DNA from: Clostridia bacterium
GTDB taxonomy: Bacteria; Bacillota; DTU086
Direction: 5' to 3'
Assembly: GCA_012523575.1 (NCBI GenBank)
Contig: JAAYIF010000052.1
Location: 14,635-78,634, forward strand
DNA length: 64,000 nucleotides
The notes beneath the pieces are model-generated. The model worked only from the letters and a program-made list of their open reading frames with translations, was not told the origin of the DNA and made no database searches. Shown one piece after another: positions 1-63,125 of this stretch. The first letter of the stretch is position 1; the number at the start of each line of letters is the position of its first letter. The position numbers and the translations under genes are program-made.

Positions 1-918
1 ATGAATAAAAAGAGGACTTGCCCTTCTTTTGTTTACAGAACCCGAAGGTTCAACTGAAGCACTTTTTCCAATATTCCTAAAATAATAATTGTGGGGGAGC
101 CCAAAAACGGCTCTGCTTGGATGTTCATTTATTTCTGCACCCCTTAAAAAATCCAAAACAAGAGCACCATCCCCCTCTTTTCTACCAACTTCCCGCCGAT
201 AATTTATAAATTCAATGCCAATTTTATTTAAGAGTCTAAGGGCGTTTTCACTGCTGCTTCCATCAACAACACTGACTCTCGTTTGGCTGCTGAAAGAGGT
301 ATACGGGGGAAAATCATCTTCTTCGGATAAATCCCTTATACTCAGTTCAGAAATAAAACTTCTAATGCGCTCCTCTAATTCCTCAAAAGAATTTGGTTTT
401 GACCAAACCCGCTTCCCGTCAATCTCAAGATTAGTTAAGGTAAGGGAGCCAAACCCCCTTCGAGAGCGTGAACCTGCACCCCCAAAAAGACCCAATGCTG
501 TAAGCGACTTTTTTAGATAGTCTATATCTTCATCAGTGACCTTCTTTTTACGATGTTCTCTAAACTTAAGCTCCAATGTAAATCTGTCCCCGGGCTGAAA
601 AAATTTGCGGGAGCCGTAAGTTCCATACCCGAGATATGAAAGGCCTATGGGCTTTTGGGAATCTGGAACTCCAATTTTTAAATCACTGCTTTGACTGGAA
701 AAAAGAAACTTTCCCTGACCATCTGCACTTCCAAAAAGCTCCTTTTCTTTTTCCCATATTTCTTCAACAGACCTCATAGAAGGCCAAGCCACCGCCCTAA
801 ACCAAAAACGTACCAAACCCTTAATACTCGGAACTCTGAGCTCGGGATCTGCACATTTGTCGTGCACCGCACCCCCCATAAAAAGCGGGGTCGTTATCAG
901 GTATTCAGCCCTTATCAT
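1..918 (-). CDS. cmr1: Type III-B CRISPR RAMP protein, likely Cmr1 (5' part; continues beyond window start)
   Basis: Reverse-strand translation from ATG at 916-918 (AAAGGAGG RBS upstream) gives MIRAEYLITTPLFMGGAVHDKCADPELRVPSIKGLVRFWFRAVAWPS...GLFGGAGSRSRRGFGSL. The 'SIKGxxRFWFRA' motif and the glycine-rich loop are RAMP/Cmr1 hallmarks. No in-window stop, which is why it is absent from the ORF track. Confidence 0.6.
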   Translation of the reverse strand, partial: MIRAEYLITTPLFMGGAVHDKCADPELRVPSIKGLVRFWFRAVAWPSMRSVEEIWEKEKELFGSADGQGKFLFSSQSSDLKIGVPDSQKPIGLSYLGYGTYGSRKFFQPGDRFTLELKFREHRKKKVTDEDIDYLKKSLTALGLFGGAGSRSRRGFGSLTLTNLEIDGKRVWSKPNSFEELEERIRSFISELSIRDLSEEDDFPPYTSFSSQTRVSVVDGSSSENALRLLNKIGIEFINYRREVGRKEGDGALVLDFLRGAEINEHPSRAVFGLPHNYYFRNIGKSASVEPSGSVNKRRASPLFIH

Positions 919-1279: not shown

Positions 1280-2704
1280 TTAACTGCTATTTTCGGGCAA
1301 TTGCATACTGCCTGGCAACCTTTTTATTTCTTCAGGTAAATTACTTGTAAAAAGCAGTTTGCGAATTTCTTTTATATGGTTTCCAAGATTCCATTCTTTT
1401 ACATTCCTAACCTCTGCAAATCCCGCGTGGGCAATTAAATTCCTAATGGAGTTTATTTCAGAAAACTCGCAATGGAGTTTCTTCAGCGGCGAACCATCGG
1501 GTTCATTAGCAAAATTTTTAAAAAGTTTTTTCGCCTTTTCACGATCATCCTTATTTGTAATAGATACATCTACTCCTGAACTTTTATATAATTCCAAGAT
1601 CTTTGTAATTATAGCTTCTGCTAGGCAGATATAGGAGCTGGAATATCGTTTGTTTTCATAGTACCATTCAGCCAGTCTAAATTGAAATTCTGAATTGGAA
1701 CTTAAGCCGTGGAATCTTTTAGCAAAATCCTCTACGTAAGGCAGCAAATACCTGAAAGCCAGATATTCCGGTGTATCAATTTTCGCCTTTTTACTTTCCA
1801 GCAGATTATTTAGTTTGTCTACGTTGCTTCTTAAATTTTTCAAAGAATTTAGGTTAATTAAATCGGAAATGTTTTTTATTATTTCACTTGTTTCTTCGTC
1901 ATTAATTAATTCGGATATAAGGTAACCGTTGCCGTAATTAATGAAATCATAAGTTGCTTTAATCCATTTGGATATGGTAAAAAGCAGCTTCAAATCCACT
2001 ATTTTTGAATAACCAATTTCTCTGCGAACCTCAAGCATTCCGTAATACACGCTTTTAAGTTTTATATTTTTATATTTCAAAGTCTCAAGGAAATCAAGCA
2101 TTACAAACATAAAAATAGGAATGGACCGGAAAGAGTGAGTGATGTCCAGGTAAACTTCATCACCTTCTTTTAAATTATCTGCTATGTTCATGAAAGTTTT
2201 AAAATTCTTAATTAACTCTTCATCTTTCATTCCGTAATCCATTAAAAAACATCTGCTTCCACCCTCAGCATCAGAACGAAGTTTTTTCAAGTAAGCATCT
2301 ATAACCTCACTAACCTTTTTAAGATCATTCTCACTCACTTTGTTAGGCATACCATGTTTATAATTTTCTACTTTCGTGCCTAGATCTGTATAAAAATTAT
2401 CGTCAATATATACATCTGCATTCTGAGCAAAATAAAGATAAACCTCTTCCCACATGGATTTTTCTGTGCCCACTAGAATAACTTTATCAATCTTTAAATG
2501 AGTGGCCAGCGCTGCAGCAACAAAAGAAGTCACGTAACCTTTACCATTTTCCGAAAATCTATATTCAGTTTTTTGGTATTCCCTTATCTGAAATGGAACA
2601 TTATCCTGCATAACTGCATCGATCGACCGCTCATTTATGCCATTTGGTACTTTTTTGATAATGGGCTGACCTGCACCAATGGCAGATATAAGCACCTTAG
2701 ACAT
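1280..2704 (-). CDS. csx1: CRISPR-associated CARF–HEPN protein Csx1 (cyclic-oligoadenylate sensor/RNase family)
   Basis: 474 aa. N-terminal CARF-type 'DITHSFRSIP' loop (DxTHGFR-like). C-terminal HEPN Rx4-6H motif 'RNLIAH'. Adjacent to cmr1. Confidence 0.75.
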   Translation of the reverse strand: MSKVLISAIGAGQPIIKKVPNGINERSIDAVMQDNVPFQIREYQKTEYRFSENGKGYVTSFVAAALATHLKIDKVILVGTEKSMWEEVYLYFAQNADVYIDDNFYTDLGTKVENYKHGMPNKVSENDLKKVSEVIDAYLKKLRSDAEGGSRCFLMDYGMKDEELIKNFKTFMNIADNLKEGDEVYLDITHSFRSIPIFMFVMLDFLETLKYKNIKLKSVYYGMLEVRREIGYSKIVDLKLLFTISKWIKATYDFINYGNGYLISELINDEETSEIIKNISDLINLNSLKNLRSNVDKLNNLLESKKAKIDTPEYLAFRYLLPYVEDFAKRFHGLSSNSEFQFRLAEWYYENKRYSSSYICLAEAIITKILELYKSSGVDVSITNKDDREKAKKLFKNFANEPDGSPLKKLHCEFSEINSIRNLIAHAGFAEVRNVKEWNLGNHIKEIRKLLFTSNLPEEIKRLPGSMQLPENSS

Positions 2705-3591: not shown

Positions 3592-3990
3592 TCATTCTTC
3601 AATCTTTATTTCAACTTCTTTTACAGTTCCCCTTTCCCTGTCAATCCTAAACCCCCGAAGCTCCTGGGGCTCCTCCAGGGACAATATAAGATAGACTACC
3701 GGATAAAAAGCCATGTTCACGTCTTTCTGAGAAGGATATGCAGAACCATGGGGGTGGGAGTGGAAGATAGCAACCATTTTCATATTCCTTTTTCTTATAT
3801 CCTTCATCACGGAAATCTGTTCTTTGGGGTCCATGAAGTAGCTATTTGGGCTTTTATCCACATTGGTCATAGGATAAAATATCTCCGCCCTGCCTTCCAC
3901 TCCCCCTATTAGACCACACGCTTCATTGGGTTTTTCCTTATTGGAGAAATCAACCATCCCTTTGTACATCTTTTTCGGTATCACAAACAT
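3592..3990 (-). CDS. JAMM/MPN+ (Mov34) family metalloprotease
   Basis: 132 aa. JAMM motif E...HSHPHGSAYPSQKD (HxHx7Sx2D). Same strand as metX-metY and 62 nt downstream of metX. Confidence 0.8.
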   Translation of the reverse strand: MFVIPKKMYKGMVDFSNKEKPNEACGLIGGVEGRAEIFYPMTNVDKSPNSYFMDPKEQISVMKDIRKRNMKMVAIFHSHPHGSAYPSQKDVNMAFYPVVYLILSLEEPQELRGFRIDRERGTVKEVEIKIEE

Positions 3991-5197: not shown

Positions 5198-6697
<1,500 letters not shown>

Positions 6698-7659: not shown

Positions 7660-8589
7660 TCATTCCTCTACCTGAAAAAGTTCGGTGCTCAAATAGCGCT
7701 CCCCGGAATCCGGAAGAATCACAACGATCACTTTACCGCTGCTCTCGGGCCTTTTCGCCACCTGCTGTGCAGCGTAAGCCGCCGCTCCCGCAGAGATCCC
7801 CACCAGTAGACCCAGTGTCCGGGCTAGAAGCCTGCTGGTATTGAAGGCATCCTCAGCGGAAACCGGGATAACCTCATCCACCAGTGACAGATTGAGAACT
7901 TCGGGAACAAAACCGGCGCCAATTCCCTGAATCTTATGTGGGCCCGGCTTGCCTCCTGACAATACCGGAGAGTCAGAGGGTTCCACAGCAATGATCTTCA
8001 AGGTGTCCTTGCGCTTCTTTAGTTCCTCGGCGATACCCGTAATGGTTCCCCCGGTGCCAACACCGCCAACTATGATGTCCACCTTGCCATCCGTATCATC
8101 CCAAATTTCCTGGGCCGTGGTAGCCCGGTGGGCAGCGGGGTTGGACGGGTTTTCGAACTGCTGGGGAATAAAGGAATTGGGTATCTCTTTAGCCAGTTCT
8201 TCAGCCTTTTCCACAGCACCCTTCATCCCTTCAGAGCCCGGCGTTAATACCAGCTCGGCACCGTAAGCCTGGAGGAGTTTGCGGCGCTCTATGCTCATGG
8301 TTTCCGGCATGGTCAATATCAGGCGGTATCCCCTGGCGGCGCAAACAAAGGCCAGGGCAATCCCTGTGTTTCCACTGGTGGGCTCAATGATGACGGTGTC
8401 TTTATTGATAAGCCCCTTTTCCTCAGCATCCCTGATCATGGCATAGCCGATCCTGTCTTTCACACTGCCGGCAGGATTGAAGTACTCCAGTTTCCCGAGG
8501 ACTTCAGCATCCGTCCCCTGGGCTAGAGGTTTTAAACGCAGCAGAGGAGTCCCCCCGATCAGTTCCGTAAGGTTATCATAAACCCGCAT
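7660..8589 (-). CDS. cysK: Cysteine synthase (O-acetylserine sulfhydrylase)
   Basis: 309 aa. PLP-binding motifs [10 protein letters not shown] and [10 protein letters not shown]. Confidence 0.9.
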
Positions 8590-8696: not shown

Positions 8697-8736
8697 AATA
8701 TTCCCCAGGCAGCAATTGCAGTCCGGGGAATATTGA
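8697..8736. promoter_or_regulatory. Palindrome in the cysK/hypothetical divergent intergenic region (candidate operator)
   Basis: AATATTCCCC-AGGCAGCAATTGCAGTCC-GGGGAATATT. Perfect 10-bp arms around a GCAATTGC core. About 108 nt upstream of the cysK start. Confidence 0.3.
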
Positions 8737-8808: not shown

Positions 8809-8837
8809 TTGACAGGATAAAAGGTGAGTGTTATGTT
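8809..8837 (+). promoter_or_regulatory. Putative sigma-A-like promoter for the CorA-like gene
   Basis: TTGACA-17 nt-TATGTT. Confidence 0.3.
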
Positions 8838-8869: not shown

Positions 8870-10234
8870 ATGGAAATTCCTAAGTTTACCTTTGCCATAA
8901 TTCCCTTCAAGTACAGCTACTCTTTTGATTCCATCGAAAAAATTGCTGCGGAAGGCGGCATATGGCAGGAAGAATGTTCTGATTACTCACGATTTTATAA
9001 ACATATTAATATCAACCTGGACAAAAGAAACCCCAACCGGAGTATTATTGAATATAAAGCTGTGCTGTCTCCGGAAAAAAGTTCTGAATTGGGTTTTTAT
9101 ATCTCTGATAAACACAAATATTTACTGACAGGCAGGAACGAAGCCGGGGAGTATTACCGTGGCACTGTATGGATTCCGGAAATAAAAATGTTTGTCTTTG
9201 ACACAAATATAGGATTTATCTCCTGTAACTTTATCTTTGAGGACAACATAGATTTTGAATCCATGTGTGAATTAATCTGTCTTATTAAAAAAATGAAGTT
9301 CCACCAGGACAATGAAAAAAATAAAACTCTTACCATGAGGCTCGAAGACCAAAGCAAGTGCATTAATCTTCTTGAAATAATTCAAAATACTCTATTGGGT
9401 GAAGGATTTAGTGTAGGTGCGGATTTGTTTTTCGACCGCAGCGATGTTAAACGCCGGGTTTCCGCAATGATGCTGAGCTCATTTCTGTTCGAGAAAGAAA
9501 TCAGTGAAAAGGAAGCTGTCATGTATCTAAGGCCGCTAAAAAGATCCCAGAACAAAACCCACGAAGTAGGTTTTTACAGGGAGGTAGATAAAGAGCGCGT
9601 TTTGCGGCCTTTTAAAAATATGTTCTGGGGATTTTCTCCCCAGGGTGTGGCCAATATCAACTATGTCGTAGAAAAAATCAGCAACGAAAAATTTATCAGA
9701 TCATTATACACCACTATTAAGAGGGAATACCTGTTCATGACCGTTTTTCTGCTAAATCAATCTTACACACTTATTGATTACTGTCACGCTTTCTCCACCG
9801 CTGCTGATAAGGCTGTTTCTCAAGAAGAGATACAGCGGATGCACAATTTTCGGCTTAAACATGTTTTTAACACCGTTTCGATCCTGGAGCATTATCGGGA
9901 ATACTATGAAAAGTTAAGGAATGCCTTGGCTATTGACAGCCTCCTTCATGAAGTGGATGAAAAGCTGGACTCCCTGTATAAGAAAAAGGAAGATCAAAGA
10001 GACGAATACCTCCGGAAAATCGAAAACAGAGTTGTAACACTTACCCTGGTTTTTACTATTCTCCTTGCAATTCTTGGAATAGTGTCCACAATGAATGCCG
10101 GGTATTATTTGTATGTGGATGTTGGCTTAAAAAATTTCCTGCTCTTATTTGTCGGCACCACTATAGCTTTAGCAGTAATTGTCTTTATAATTGTCATGAC
10201 AGTTAGAAAACTTCGCAAAACTCCTGATTTATAA
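8870..10234 (+). CDS. Hypothetical protein with CorA-like C-terminal two-TM module (divergent; 'TMN' in place of GMN)
   Basis: 455 aa from ATG 8870 (the ORF-track start at 8828 is GTG with no RBS spacing). Large soluble N-domain. C-terminus has coiled-coil–TM1(…LGIVSTMNAG)–short loop–TM2–basic tail (RKLRKTPDL), the same order as CorA (…GIYGMNF…KKKKWL). AT-rich. Confidence 0.5.
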   Translation: MEIPKFTFAIIPFKYSYSFDSIEKIAAEGGIWQEECSDYSRFYKHININLDKRNPNRSIIEYKAVLSPEKSSELGFYISDKHKYLLTGRNEAGEYYRGTVWIPEIKMFVFDTNIGFISCNFIFEDNIDFESMCELICLIKKMKFHQDNEKNKTLTMRLEDQSKCINLLEIIQNTLLGEGFSVGADLFFDRSDVKRRVSAMMLSSFLFEKEISEKEAVMYLRPLKRSQNKTHEVGFYREVDKERVLRPFKNMFWGFSPQGVANINYVVEKISNEKFIRSLYTTIKREYLFMTVFLLNQSYTLIDYCHAFSTAADKAVSQEEIQRMHNFRLKHVFNTVSILEHYREYYEKLRNALAIDSLLHEVDEKLDSLYKKKEDQRDEYLRKIENRVVTLTLVFTILLAILGIVSTMNAGYYLYVDVGLKNFLLLFVGTTIALAVIVFIIVMTVRKLRKTPDL

Positions 10235-10319
10235 AAAGAGACCCATTCCCGGTTTGGGAAAGGGTTTTTCTGAAATTGCGAAGTATTTCTTTCACTAAGA
10301 TGGTGAACAAATTTACTCT

Positions 10320-10647
10320 CCTGCTTATTTCTCCTTTTTCCCAAATAAGCAGCCTTAACATATTCTCTTTCCAGCATCTTCCACCCTTTTGTGCTTAAAA
10401 ATTTGTCCGTCTCCAGGATATGGCCACAATCTGCGTGCAGGGCCATATTGGCATTATGTTTTTTAAGAGAATAATTTCCCTTAACACGAATCTTTTCTAT
10501 TATTCCGAAAATATCCCTTACAAACAGGGGAATCATCCTCAGAGAGGCTCGTCCATCTTCAGAATCATAGGATAAAACCTCAGCGCCCTTTTCACTGCCG
10601 ATATTTGCTGCTCTCCACCCGGACAAAGTTCCCACCATCTGCCACAA
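10320..10647 (-). pseudogene. Decayed 3' fragment of a livF-like ABC ATPase gene
   Basis: Translation WQMVGTLSGW...ALHADCGHILETDKFLS...EYVKAAYLGKRRNKQ aligns with the C-terminal ~110 aa of intact LivF at 12312-13064 (WQLAGTLSGGEQQ...ALHIADWGYVLETGKIVLS...EVKAAYLGKKRQ). The Walker-B/LSGGQ region is degraded and the stop is lost. Confidence 0.55.
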
Positions 10648-10769
10648 GTACCCCTAAGCTTGTGGAAAAACACTTATATCCAAACGCTGTTTGATAGCAA
10701 AGATAGCAAAAGGCTTACATTCCTTATAGATAAGGTAAAAAAAATAGCCAGTAGCATTTTTTGAAACTG

Positions 10770-11891
10770 TCATTTTACGAATCCATATTTATTTTTTAAA
10801 TACTCTTTTCTGATATCATCTATGCTTTTTAATTTACCGTTACGAATAACGTACCAATAGTTATAACCATTAACCCTTTTAGCTCTGCCCCCTTTAGCTT
10901 TTGCTGCGCAAGAATGCATATCCATTTCTTCTCCCCTAAAAACAAGTTTTCCGTTAGCTTTCAGTCTAGCCTCCGCTGATTTATTCTTTAGAAAAAAGCT
11001 TTCTCCTTCAATGAAATAACCGTCTTGTATCATTTGTTGCATAGTTACCTTTGGAGGCTTTTCATCAAATTTTGCTTTTTCTATATCTCCTATGTGAGTG
11101 ACAGTTGATGCTAATCTTTTTTCTCCGTATTCACAATATTTTTTGTCTTTTTCAATCATAATATAGTTTCTTCCCATTCTTTTTGCGACTACACCCGTTG
11201 TCATGGTTCCAGCAAATGGATCTAAAACAAGATCTCCAACTTTTGAAGATATGGCAATAATTCTGTAAAGAAGTTCTTCCGGTTTCTGTGTGCTATGAAG
11301 TTTTTCTCCTTTATCATCTTTTAATCTCTCATTACCCTGACAAATACCTATTCTCCAAACAGAACCTAACTGCTTTCTAACACCATTTCTGTATTCTTCC
11401 TCGCTTACAGTATCCTTATTGAGTTCTTTTGCGGTTTTATAATTGAAGGTAAACTTTGATTTTTGCGACTTTGTTGCCCATATCAAGGTTTCATGACTGT
11501 TGTTTAATCTTACTCCTCTAAAGTTAGGGGTTGGATTTTTTTTATACCATATAACATCGTTAATAAGCCAAAAACCTATTCTTTGCATTATTGCTCCAAT
11601 GGTATATATACATTGCATACCTCCTATTACCCAGATAGAGCCATCCTTTTTCAAAACTCTTTTACATTCGCTGAGCCATTTTTCTGTAAAATTTTCATAA
11701 TCCTCTAATGTTGTAAACTGATTGTCCCACTCGTCAACGCAACCATCAAACTCTGTTCCTTCCACTCTATGCAAAACTCCTTCAACTCTCATCCAATAAG
11801 GAGGATCTGCGAAAATTAGATCAACACTGTCATCTGGTATTTTTTTTAATTCCACCAAAGCATCTCCATTAATAACTACATTTTTTTCCAT
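10770..11891 (-). CDS. N6-adenine DNA methyltransferase, beta class, CcrM/M.HinfI family (predicted GANTC); orphan
   Basis: 373 aa. Motif IV DLIFADPPY precedes motif I LDPFAGTMTTG. Near-colinear similarity to CcrM (KRVLKDDG(S/T)(I/L)WVIG…WxLNDIxWxKxNPxPNFxG…HETLIWA…HxTQKPE(E/A)LLYR…LDPFxGxGTTG…) including a C-terminal extension. No adjacent restriction endonuclease. Confidence 0.85.
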   Translation of the reverse strand: MEKNVVINGDALVELKKIPDDSVDLIFADPPYWMRVEGVLHRVEGTEFDGCVDEWDNQFTTLEDYENFTEKWLSECKRVLKKDGSIWVIGGMQCIYTIGAIMQRIGFWLINDVIWYKKNPTPNFRGVRLNNSHETLIWATKSQKSKFTFNYKTAKELNKDTVSEEEYRNGVRKQLGSVWRIGICQGNERLKDDKGEKLHSTQKPEELLYRIIAISSKVGDLVLDPFAGTMTTGVVAKRMGRNYIMIEKDKKYCEYGEKRLASTVTHIGDIEKAKFDEKPPKVTMQQMIQDGYFIEGESFFLKNKSAEARLKANGKLVFRGEEMDMHSCAAKAKGGRAKRVNGYNYWYVIRNGKLKSIDDIRKEYLKNKYGFVK

Positions 11892-12311: not shown

Positions 12312-13064
12312 CTAAATAGCTGAGGCCTGTCTTTTCTTACCCAAATATGCAGCCTTAACTTCTTCGTTCTCCAGCAGTTCCTTCCCTGTTCCGCTCAAAA
12401 CTATTTTCCCCGTTTCCAATACGTAACCCCAATCCGCTATGTGCAGGGCAGCATTGGCATTCTGTTCTATAAGCAGTATGGTTACTCCGTTGTTGTAGAT
12501 TTGCTGAATAATGGAAAATATGCTTTTAACAATTAACGGTGCCAGTCCAAGGGAAGGTTCGTCCATCATCAGAATCTTTGGTCGGGACATCAGGGCTCTT
12601 CCCACCGCCAGCATTTGCTGTTCTCCTCCGGACAAGGTTCCCGCCAGCTGCCACGACCGTTCCTTAAGTCTGGGGAATAGCTCGTATACCCACGCCAGGT
12701 CTTTTTTTATTTGCTCTTTATTGTTTCTCAAATACGCCCCGATCAGCAGGTTTTCGTAAACCGTCAGGTTTGGAAAAACCCGGCGCCCTTCAGGTACCAG
12801 AGTAATTCCCCTGGCAACGATCTCCGAGGTTTTTAACCCGGTGATGTCTTCTCCCTGGTAGGTTATTTTCCCTGATTTTACCTTCACTAATCCCATAATG
12901 GAACGAAGGGTGGTGGATTTCCCAGCCCCGTTAGCTCCAATCAAAGTGACAATGCTGCCCTCGGGCACCTCAATGGTTATCCCCTTAAGGGCTTCAATAC
13001 CGCCATAGCTCACCGTAAGGTTTTCAACTTTAAGCACCTTCTTCCACCCCCAGATAGGCCTCAA
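12312..13064 (-). CDS. livF: Branched-chain amino acid ABC transporter ATP-binding protein LivF
   Basis: 250 aa. Walker A GANGAGKST, signature LSGGEQQ. Last gene of livJHMGF. Confidence 0.9.
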   Translation of the reverse strand: MRPIWGWKKVLKVENLTVSYGGIEALKGITIEVPEGSIVTLIGANGAGKSTTLRSIMGLVKVKSGKITYQGEDITGLKTSEIVARGITLVPEGRRVFPNLTVYENLLIGAYLRNNKEQIKKDLAWVYELFPRLKERSWQLAGTLSGGEQQMLAVGRALMSRPKILMMDEPSLGLAPLIVKSIFSIIQQIYNNGVTILLIEQNANAALHIADWGYVLETGKIVLSGTGKELLENEEVKAAYLGKKRQASAI

Positions 13065-28840: not shown

Positions 28841-28867
28841 TCTCTGCTGCAGTTTTCTCTACTTGCG

Positions 28868-29035
28868 AACTCACGCCGGACGTCTCTAAGCAAAGCGTAA
28901 TGGGCAAAACCGGGCCGCCCCAAATTCGGCGTCCATGCCTCAGGTTGGGGGCTGGCGCGAACGTCCATGCTCGCGCCCCCCGGTTTTGCCTTACGCTTTG
29001 CCAGAGCTGTTAGCCGGCGTTCGTTAAGTCGTTTC
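28868..29035. other. GC-rich ~170-nt long imperfect inverted repeat (candidate structured ncRNA or MITE-like element)
   Basis: Arms …ACGCCGG…GCAAAGCGTAATGGGCAAAACCGGG… and …CCCGGTTTTGCCTTACGCTTTGC…CCGGCGT… pair over ~55 nt around a ~50-nt core that carries its own hairpin GGCGCGA-ACGTCCATGC-TCGCGCC. GC-rich in an AT-moderate intergenic region. The overlapping ORFs are judged spurious. Confidence 0.4.
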
Positions 29036-51890: not shown

Positions 51891-52071
51891 ATTAAACCCT
51901 CCATAAAAATTAAGCCTTCCGGACCAAAGGGTACGGAAGGCATAGCATCGACAGACCGTCTAACCTCCGTCTCGGTCCTCACAGGATCCAAGCGGAAAAA
52001 AATAGGATATTTAAATGTTAACACAGGAACGGTCCCCTGTCCATAAAAGCTCCTTTATATTTCACTCACTT

Positions 52072-62879: not shown

Positions 62880-62954
62880 TGGTGACCCGTAGGGGATTCG
62901 AACCCCTGTTACCGGCGTGAAAGGCCGGTGTCTTAACCACTTGACCAACGGGCC
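62880..62954 (-). tRNA. tRNA-Glu (UUC)
   Basis: Minus strand: GGCCCGTTGGTCAAGTGGTTAAGACACCGGCCTTTCACGCCGGTAACAGGGGTTCGAATCCCCTACGGGTCACCA. Anticodon loop CTTTCAC. CCA encoded. Confidence 0.9.
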
Positions 62955-62966
62955 GGAAACAAAACT

Positions 62967-63043
62967 TGGTAGCGGTGGTAGGACTCGAACCTACGACACT
63001 ACGGGTATGAACCGTATGCTCTAACCACCTGAGCTACACCGCC
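62967..63043 (-). tRNA. tRNA-Met (CAU, elongator type)
   Basis: Minus strand: GGCGGTGTAGCTCAGGTGGTTAGAGCATACGGTTCATACCCGTAG…CCACCGCTACCA. Close to B. subtilis elongator tRNA-Met. Could alternatively be Ile2 (lysidine), but the acceptor and anticodon stems match Met. Confidence 0.8.
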
Positions 63044-63050
63044 ACTTAAT

Positions 63051-63125
<75 letters not shown>

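Follow-up and report, generated by a model that had tools for sequence, protein, structure and literature searches.

Gene and protein at the locus

The window analyzed here is the whole 64,000-nucleotide stretch of Clostridia bacterium contig JAAYIF010000052.1 (assembly GCA_012523575.1, positions 14,635 to 78,634), and the subject of this study is a gene at 8870..10234 (+) that encodes a CorA-like membrane protein. Its C-terminal module is a degenerate CorA pore module, the entire chain is related to the CorA-like effectors of type III CRISPR systems, and we favor, with some caution, a role as a ligand-gated membrane effector or channel.

The open reading frame (ORF) starts at ATG 8870 and ends with the stop codon at 10232-10234. 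The boundaries given in the initial annotation were correct, while its length of 455 amino acids had counted the stop codon; the protein comprises 454. The ORF is intact and collinear across all homologs. A sigma-70-type promoter-like site was predicted at 8809..8837 (+), consisting of TTGACA, a 17-nt spacer, and TATGTT (the -10 box, 8832-8837) with TG ahead of it, which corresponds to a consensus match of 10/12 with an extended -10. In the homolog alignment, the N-termini all share M-x-x-x-K-[FY]-T-F-A-I-I-P-F, as read from ATG 8870, and from these N-termini and the position of the promoter-like site, ATG 8870 is the likely start. GTG 8828 was considered as a start and rejected, as the homologs begin at the ATG-equivalent position and the predicted -10 box lies 3' of the GTG. 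A terminator-like hairpin with a T-run (10246..10270 (+), hairpin at 10246-10260) begins 12 nt past the stop codon. With a promoter-like site and a terminator-like hairpin of its own, the gene looks like a single transcription unit.

The protein comprises a predicted N-terminal α/β sensor domain (residues 1-272, 8870..9685 (+)), a helical stalk (residues 273-387, 9686..10030 (+)), and a C-terminal membrane module. The hydropathy profile revealed only two hydrophobic segments, with none other above the threshold, and these were assigned to transmembrane segments TM1 (residues 388-408, 10031..10093 (+)) and TM2 (residues 423-445, 10136..10204 (+)). They are joined by a short loop of 14 residues (409-422, NAGYYLYVDVGLKN, 10094..10135 (+)), predicted to be extracytoplasmic from the positive-inside rule, and are followed by the basic tail RKLRKTPDL (10205..10231 (+)), predicted to be cytoplasmic. 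By the same rule, both termini would be cytoplasmic, the cytoplasmic part amounting to ~385 residues. Basic tails are found family-wide, K450 being nearly invariant, and every family member has kept TM1, TM2, and the tail. The conserved motifs of the N-domain are IIPF (10-13), FDTNIGF (110-116), K140-K141, and PFKNMFWGFSPQGVANINY (247-265), and the stalk carries the conserved EYLFMTVFLLNQSYTLIDYC (286-305) and S..LEHYR.

The stalk was assigned by its alignment with the stalks of CRISPR CorA and Pfam CorA proteins and by the helices of a structural model. This AlphaFold2 monomer model, built from a ten-sequence alignment (predicted local distance difference test score, pLDDT, 68.6; predicted template modeling score, pTM, 0.62), placed an α/β domain at residues 1-265, followed by helices at 273-313, 318-352, 355-418, and 420-448. 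The 64-residue helix 355-418 runs from the stalk straight into TM1, as in CorA, and such a long continuous helix is a hallmark of CorA channels.

CorA-type pore module and decay of the GMN signature

The initial annotation had described a CorA pattern at the C-terminus with TMN in place of GMN, and this description was borne out. The two C-terminal TM helices, the short loop, and the basic tail of CorA are all present by hydropathy, with T407-M408-N409 (10088..10096 (+)) at the TM1 end, and the PADLOC matches, the profile search of PDB, and the GMN-bearing relatives agree with it. Residues 273-438 were matched by the PADLOC 'CorA-like' model PDLC01043 in a collinear alignment to positions 270-440 of its 457 (E = 1.6e-11), and PDLC01174 also matched (E = 2e-6). 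The same PADLOC CorA model was matched by 93 of 95 relatives. When a profile of these 95 relatives was compared with PDB, the top nine matches were genuine CorA Mg2+ channels with TM1, loop, and TM2 in register, at marginal E values of ~0.005.

At the outer end of TM1, the LPxT-preceded GMN of CorA was looked for in the protein, and ILGIVSTMN was found instead. About 10 of 145 full-length relatives carry LPxTxxxG[FIL][FY]GMN at this position. Seven GMN-bearing relatives (P0020, P0026, P0028, P0038, P0022, P0021, and P0042) pass the Pfam CorA family PF01544 with 27.7-61.7 bits (cut-off 27), the match covering the stalk, TM1, and TM2, and the GMN-bearing relatives are named 'CorA family divalent cation transporter' by NCBI. 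The protein itself did not match PF01544 even at E<=10, so its support as a CorA protein is transitive, through its relatives. The TMN is not conserved among the close homologs, which read SNMSEG, SNMNSG, SNLNSG, GLVNNV, or ALVSDS at this position. As the GMN-bearing relatives pass the Pfam CorA family and the PDB profile matches are all CorA, we conclude from these alignments that the C-terminal module, though degenerate, is a genuine CorA pore module, in which TMN marks the position of a decayed GMN. The LPxT and GMN signatures are needed for Mg2+ selectivity in CorA. With LPxT...GMN decayed to ILG..TMN, the protein should not function as a Mg2+-selective uptake channel.

Relation to CRISPR-associated CorA effectors

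Searches with the N-domain against Pfam, NCBIfam, and PDB sequences found no family, its fold was matched by no solved structure, and the α/β/α cytoplasmic N-domain typical of CorA was looked for in the protein and not found. The view of the initial annotation that the N-domain belongs to no placeable family therefore held for these databases and not beyond them, since the domain shares homology with its counterpart in CRISPR-associated CorA-like proteins.

The reference for this comparison was an alignment of eleven proteins of the CorA-1 clade, rebuilt by optical character recognition (OCR) from Suppl. Fig. 10 of PMC10600005 and thus containing some errors. Aligning the 95-sequence profile with it in hhalign gave a probability of 98.1% and an E value of 1e-13, with residues 286-417 of the window protein matched to CorA-1 positions 313-448. 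In a permissive (greedy) alignment, the same match extended to residues 5-452 against positions 2-482. The motifs IxPF, F.T.VGF, Y..M....L.Q...L, and [YW]G.S are common to both sides, with IIPF aligned to HIFYPF, FDTNIGF to LYATGVGF, EYLFMTVFLLNQSYTL to IYARMAEIVLVQRASML, and FWGFS to LYGIS (window protein first). In this OCR-derived alignment, K140-K141 falls in the column of R152-R153 of the Bacteroides fragilis protein BfrCorA, a pair assigned to the putative ligand site, the mutation of which abolishes immunity (PMC10600005). Among 31 relatives K140 is invariant, and among 95 it is nearly so. The alignments provide strong evidence for homology between the protein and the CRISPR CorA-like superfamily over the full length.

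SAM-AMP gates the characterized members of this superfamily, which serve type III CRISPR systems as effectors, and for CRISPR CorA effectors an obligate pairing with NrN, DEDD, or SAM-AMP lyase has been described (PMC10600005). An identity of only 12-15% between CorA proteins of type III-B and those of type III-D2 (PMC13294483) marks the superfamily as very divergent. Most CorA-1 proteins keep GMN, and 3 of the 11 have lost it, so the loss of GMN also occurs in bona fide CRISPR effectors. The initial annotation had regarded a conserved GMN in relatives as a sign of ordinary Mg/Co transporters; some distant relatives do carry it, yet the idea of a membrane effector stands, because these relatives share the non-CorA N-domain and the characterized CorA-1 clade carries GMN as well.

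Family size and selection

The protein matched no family in Pfam or NCBIfam, and a single-sequence search of PDB returned spurious matches only. Ten direct homologs were found among 5.8 billion proteins, and an eleventh was found by profile (11 clusters); the subfamily is thus very rare. Second and third word-indexed homolog searches added P0011 and P0125 only. When the subfamily profile was run against 1.84 billion cluster representatives, 862 were matched at E<=1e-3 and 397 at E<=1e-10, the 862 members being counted as clusters at 50% identity. Most of these representatives are 430-520 amino acids long and aligned from approximately residue 5 to 445. Because the profile alignments are nearly full length, the whole protein, and not only its tail, belongs to a sizeable family.

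In the homolog alignment, which spans 29-65% identity, 47 columns are invariant. For the least-diverged pairs of the closest homologs, the ratio of nonsynonymous to synonymous substitutions (dN/dS) was 0.12-0.15, alongside 0.11 for the flanking PBP, 0.06 for the U32 peptidase, and 0.035 for the sigma factor. The clade of the protein is under purifying selection. Searches of plasmid and phage collections by tblastn and two scans of viral contigs found no relatives, and the gene is therefore not evidently borne by mobile elements.

Genomic contexts of relatives

The five closest homologs are 58-65% identical to the protein and occupy one syntenic slot in spore-former chromosomes. The slot reads HTH-cupin gene, AMP-binding enzyme, SASP, in some cases an amino-acid permease, the CorA-like gene, a convergent sigma factor, PBP, U32 peptidase, and YceG. 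It is variable, as an amino-acid permease or DUF2383 gene is inserted in some loci. In this spore-former lineage, the gene is stably inherited under purifying selection. The window copy lies at a different locus.

More distant relatives are found in various contexts. The initial annotation had proposed a check for co-occurrence of homologs with cas10/cmr; no cas genes were found near the five closest homologs (<=10 kb on each side), and some more distant relatives do have them as neighbors. P0009 (29-32% identical) is surrounded by cas6, Csx19, and RAMP-family proteins of large size (631 and 670 amino acids) in a III-D-like layout. Distant relatives with ~20-23% identity are located in type III-B operons with cas6 at L019, L023, and L024; together with L009/L012, these are the loci of relatives with a type III cas operon plus cas6. 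A metagenome scan for distant relatives was run with a 31-sequence alignment.

In other loci, the partner gene is of another kind. In two unrelated gut metagenome-assembled genomes (L010 9974-11982 and L011 9974-11980; 32-34% identical), the CorA-like gene is directly followed by a 2H phosphoesterase gene. The 2H proteins comprise 196-197 amino acids, have both HVTL motifs intact, and are 48% identical to each other, and the genes flanking the two pairs differ. No cas genes were found among the annotated neighbors, which covered part of the genes within 10 kb. By analogy with NrN, the 2H phosphoesterase may be a messenger-degrading partner. At L020 (7660-10062), a gene for a 207-amino-acid class III cyclase lies directly upstream of the CorA-like gene (Pfam Guanylate_cyc, E = 9.5e-11; PADLOC Pycsar PycC, E = 1.9e-7), and these matches make the locus look like a Pycsar-type system in which the effector is CorA-like. 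At L021 (8487-11383), the gene that ends 9 nt upstream of the CorA-like gene encodes a 490-amino-acid protein, which carries an HEPN-like motif (NLRNRITH) in its N-terminal part and a SAM-dependent methyltransferase domain at its C-terminus. A protein of 547-574 amino acids precedes the CorA-like gene in two lineages (L017 55-3277; L029 7163-10488 of Laceyella sacchari CP025943, and L030); it is Biopterin_H-like according to Pfam in Laceyella (L029/L030) and by eye only in L017. The Laceyella pair adjoins putative methionine-salvage genes, read from Pfam as APH (mtnK-like), IF-2B (mtnA-like), and RuBisCO-like.

The GMN-bearing P0020 ends a DnaJ-TPR/AAA/GrpE/Hsp70/TPR/DnaJ operon in Bacillus sp. 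JJ1562 (L028 1-10472) and is followed by a DUF4145 protein that matches PADLOC candidate-defense models. A distant relative at L016/L018 is found in a housekeeping-looking context.

Surroundings of the gene in the window

The presence of a type III-B system in this genome, which had been noted in the initial annotation, was confirmed at the left edge of the window. The 5' part of cmr1, a type III-B RAMP gene, is located at 1..918 (-) and runs off the window edge (identified from its translation; PADLOC Cmr1, E = 1.4e-25), and a csx1-type gene at 1280..2704 (-) encodes a CARF-HEPN effector with an RNLIAH motif (TIGR02221, E = 1.3e-55; PADLOC CARF_HEPN, E = 1.9e-125). Both provide context only and have ~34% GC. 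No CRISPR array was found in the window.

The CorA-like gene is neither part of a type III cas operon nor an immediate neighbor of one; it lies 6.2 kb from csx1-cmr1, in a separate low-GC islet. The genes between csx1 and the CorA-like gene are of normal GC and comprise LysM, an MPN-like gene (3592-3990), metX, metY, a larE-like gene, and cysK, and a 5.8-kb stretch of five core metabolic genes separates the Cmr system from the CorA-like gene. The GC content of the gene is 38.2%, as compared with 34% for the downstream methyltransferase gene, 51-55% for the left-hand core genes, and 45% for the full window, in agreement with the earlier placement of the gene in an accessory island.

Upstream, cysK (7660-8589 (-)) is divergent from the CorA-like gene; its promoter (8685-8656) matches the consensus at 12/12 positions. 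A near-perfect palindrome of 19+19 nt (AATATTCCCCAGGCAGCAA / TTGCAGTCCGGGGAATATT) at 8697-8734, between the two divergent promoters, may by its sequence be an operator. A SAM (S-adenosylmethionine) riboswitch (S-box, 97 bits) at 6586-6697 (-) lies ahead of metY-metX. A tie between this riboswitch of the met operon and SAM-AMP signaling was considered and set aside: the proximity of SAM metabolism is probably a coincidence, because the close homologs are without such neighbors.

Downstream, a decayed 3' fragment of livF is followed by a type II/orphan N6/N4 DNA methyltransferase gene (10770-11891, 34% GC) with a RAMA domain, and no intact ORF was found on the + strand in 10235-10769. The livF fragment (10330-10650 (-)) duplicates, at a distance of ~2005 nt, the 3' part of the intact copy at 12312-13064 (-), with 43% amino acid and ~73% nucleotide identity, and the methyltransferase gene sits between the two copies. 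From this arrangement, a methyltransferase cassette seems to have entered the former livF 3' end, with the replacement end either carried in or generated by the insertion. Further features of the window include a TwoAYGGAY RNA (67.8 bits) at 28867-29026 (-), a pan motif (40.6 bits) at 51963-52043 (-) ahead of pantothenate genes, and three tRNA genes at 62883-63125 (-).

Proposed function and alternatives

On balance, we lean toward the protein being a stand-alone ligand-gated membrane effector or channel, a divergent protein within the CorA-like superfamily. By homology, it would assemble as a CorA-like pentamer, and a small, probably nucleotide-derived ligand would bind at the interface between the sensor domain and the stalk. 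Ligand binding would open the pore, membrane potential and ion gradients would collapse, and the resulting growth stop would act as a defense of the abortive-infection type. The signal might come in trans from the type III-B Cmr system nearby, a candidate source that is the weakest step of this proposal. In favor of a defense role are the recurrent pairing of the superfamily with enzymes that make or degrade signals and the location of the gene in a low-GC islet beside a methyltransferase gene and near Cmr/Csx1.

Several observations weigh against the proposal. No gene for a signal generator, NrN, DEDD, or SAM-AMP lyase is adjacent to the CorA-like gene, nor was any phosphodiesterase or lyase gene found near it. 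The effector neighboring the local Cmr genes is Csx1, which implies cyclic oligoadenylate (cOA) rather than SAM-AMP signaling at that locus, the cas10 of which lies outside the window, and no functional link between the protein and the Cmr system was found. The five closest homologs had no cas genes within the available locus sequence (<=10 kb on each side). Their partner-less, core-like synteny and the absence of a degrading enzyme weaken a defense role. Identity to the characterized CorA-1 proteins is very low, the column of D219-D220 of BfrCorA was not confidently placed in the OCR-derived alignment, and the structural models are monomers of moderate confidence (pLDDT 69-74). The earlier suggestion of a type III-linked membrane effector was therefore upheld in part: membership of the superfamily is supported, and no functional link to the local Cmr genes, no adjacent NrN, DEDD, or SAM-AMP lyase gene, and no cas genes within <=10 kb of the five closest homologs were found.

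The same syntenic slot gives the best of the alternatives its force, although we judge this alternative unlikely: a vertically inherited physiological channel or transporter of spore-forming Firmicutes, gated by a metabolite and serving ion homeostasis, stress, sporulation, or germination, with the window copy acquired by lateral transfer. The five homologs share one housekeeping-looking slot between SASP and sigma factor/PBP/U32/YceG, and their pairwise identity of 63-82% is ordered like that of the flanking core genes, with dN/dS in keeping with these genes; the synteny and this divergence give the look of vertical inheritance, more in the manner of a physiological gene than of a mobile defense one. 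The slot itself is variable, however, and the window copy lies elsewhere, in a low-GC islet beside defense-type genes. A single transcription unit with a sigma-A-type promoter and without a partner gene would suit such a channel, as would the empty searches of plasmids, phages, and viral contigs; the subfamily is nevertheless rare and patchy, with 11 clusters among 5.8 billion proteins. As for the transport itself, the NCBI name of the GMN-bearing relatives points to divalent cations, and a CorA linked to type VI-B CRISPR moves Zn2+, Ni2+, and Cd2+ in liposomes (PMC11662929). Against this, GMN/LPxT has been lost in the protein and varies even within its clade, and the N-domain is of the CRISPR-effector type, not that of the CorA cytoplasmic domain.

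A closer tie to the neighboring Cmr system seems doubtful to us. The protein would then be a trans-encoded ancillary effector of the type III-B system, activated by a Cas10 product (cOA or SAM-AMP) in parallel to Csx1. The gene is 6.2 kb from csx1-cmr1, and we estimated the chance of a random gene lying that near at well below 1%, for a single cas locus and an assumed genome of 3-4 Mb; the more distant subfamily member P0009 lies directly beside cas6 and a III-D-like operon. Hoikka et al. (2024) reported that CorA co-occurs with and is fused to the cA6-activated Csm6-2 and proposed CorA subclasses with other ligands (PMC11229360). The two islets are parted, however, by the normal-GC core genes metX, metY, larE-like, and cysK, no degrading enzyme is adjacent, and the five closest homologs are not cas-linked.

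A broader reading, to which we give about as little credence, takes the CorA-like sensor-pore as a plug-in effector of general use, not tied to CRISPR, whose signal enzyme would vary with the lineage (type III Cas10, Pycsar-like cyclase, 2H phosphoesterase, or Biopterin_H-like protein). In spore-formers, the clade of the window would be its partner-less, vertically inherited form, opened not by a dedicated immune messenger but by a metabolite of the cell itself or of a phage, possibly one related to nucleotides or SAM. Two CorA-like contexts lie beside methionine/SAM metabolism, namely the window (S-box metY-metX and cysK) and Laceyella (the methionine-salvage cluster), which is a hint and not evidence.

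A decaying relic or a membrane anchor without pore function, with the loss of GMN signifying the loss of the channel, is very improbable: the selectivity motif is degenerate and variable in the clade and partner genes are absent, but all homologs have kept an intact, collinear ORF, motifs are strongly and non-uniformly conserved, dN/dS stands at 0.12-0.15, and every member retains TM1, TM2, and the basic tail.

CRISPR-associated CorA itself is already known. A limited literature search turned up no CorA-like subfamily that is partner-less, GMN-less, vertically inherited, and located outside cas loci, and no CorA-like gene with a 2H phosphoesterase or Pycsar-like cyclase gene as its partner. 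To our knowledge, no effector other than CRISPR-associated CorA is known for immune messengers of the SAM-AMP class, and the structure and gating mechanism of this CorA were still unsolved in the literature to mid-2026. With 862 clusters at 50% identity, the family with this sensor-pore architecture is large, and within it the clade of the window is partner-less, GMN-less, and outside cas operons. Such natural variants can be used to learn which signal the N-domain recognizes and whether pore function depends on the Mg2+ filter, and they suggest that CorA-like effectors may serve more signaling systems than type III CRISPR. This gene will be of modest practical value until a ligand or a phenotype comes to light; it is mainly a lead on recognition by the CorA sensor domain.

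Comparison with known systems

The closest characterized counterpart is the SAM-AMP-activated CorA of B. fragilis, of clade CorA-1 (PMC10600005). Like the protein of the window, it has an N-domain of unique fold, a stalk, and two C-terminal TM segments in ~450-530 amino acids; CorA-1 proteins also share the PADLOC CorA-like match and, as placed in the OCR-derived alignment, a basic pair at the R152-R153 column. Unlike most CorA-1 proteins, which keep LPxT...GMN, the protein reads ILG..TMN, and its gene is outside a cas operon and not next to NrN, DEDD, or SAM-AMP lyase. The type III-D2 CorA (SAM-AMP, SAM-AMP2; PMC13294483) is likened to the subfamily through genomic context: the subfamily member P0009 lies in a III-D-like layout, whereas the window gene is without such neighbors.

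Canonical CorA/MIT channels (Thermotoga maritima and Methanocaldococcus jannaschii; PF01544) share the stalk helix running into TM1, the short loop, TM2, the basic tail, and an N-terminus on the inside; they differ in the PF01544 match, LPxT...GMN, and the CorA-type N-domain, all three of which the protein lacks. The type VI-B1 CorA of Prevotella muris (PMC11662929), a CRISPR-linked offshoot of CorA-1, also has two C-terminal TM segments; in contrast to the window gene, which is without a Cas13 context, it transports divalent metals and dampens Cas13b. Pycsar PycTM, CBASS Cap15, type III Cam1, and Csx23 are unrelated to the protein in sequence, and the likeness is one of analogy only, in the shared logic of a membrane disruptor gated by a signal.

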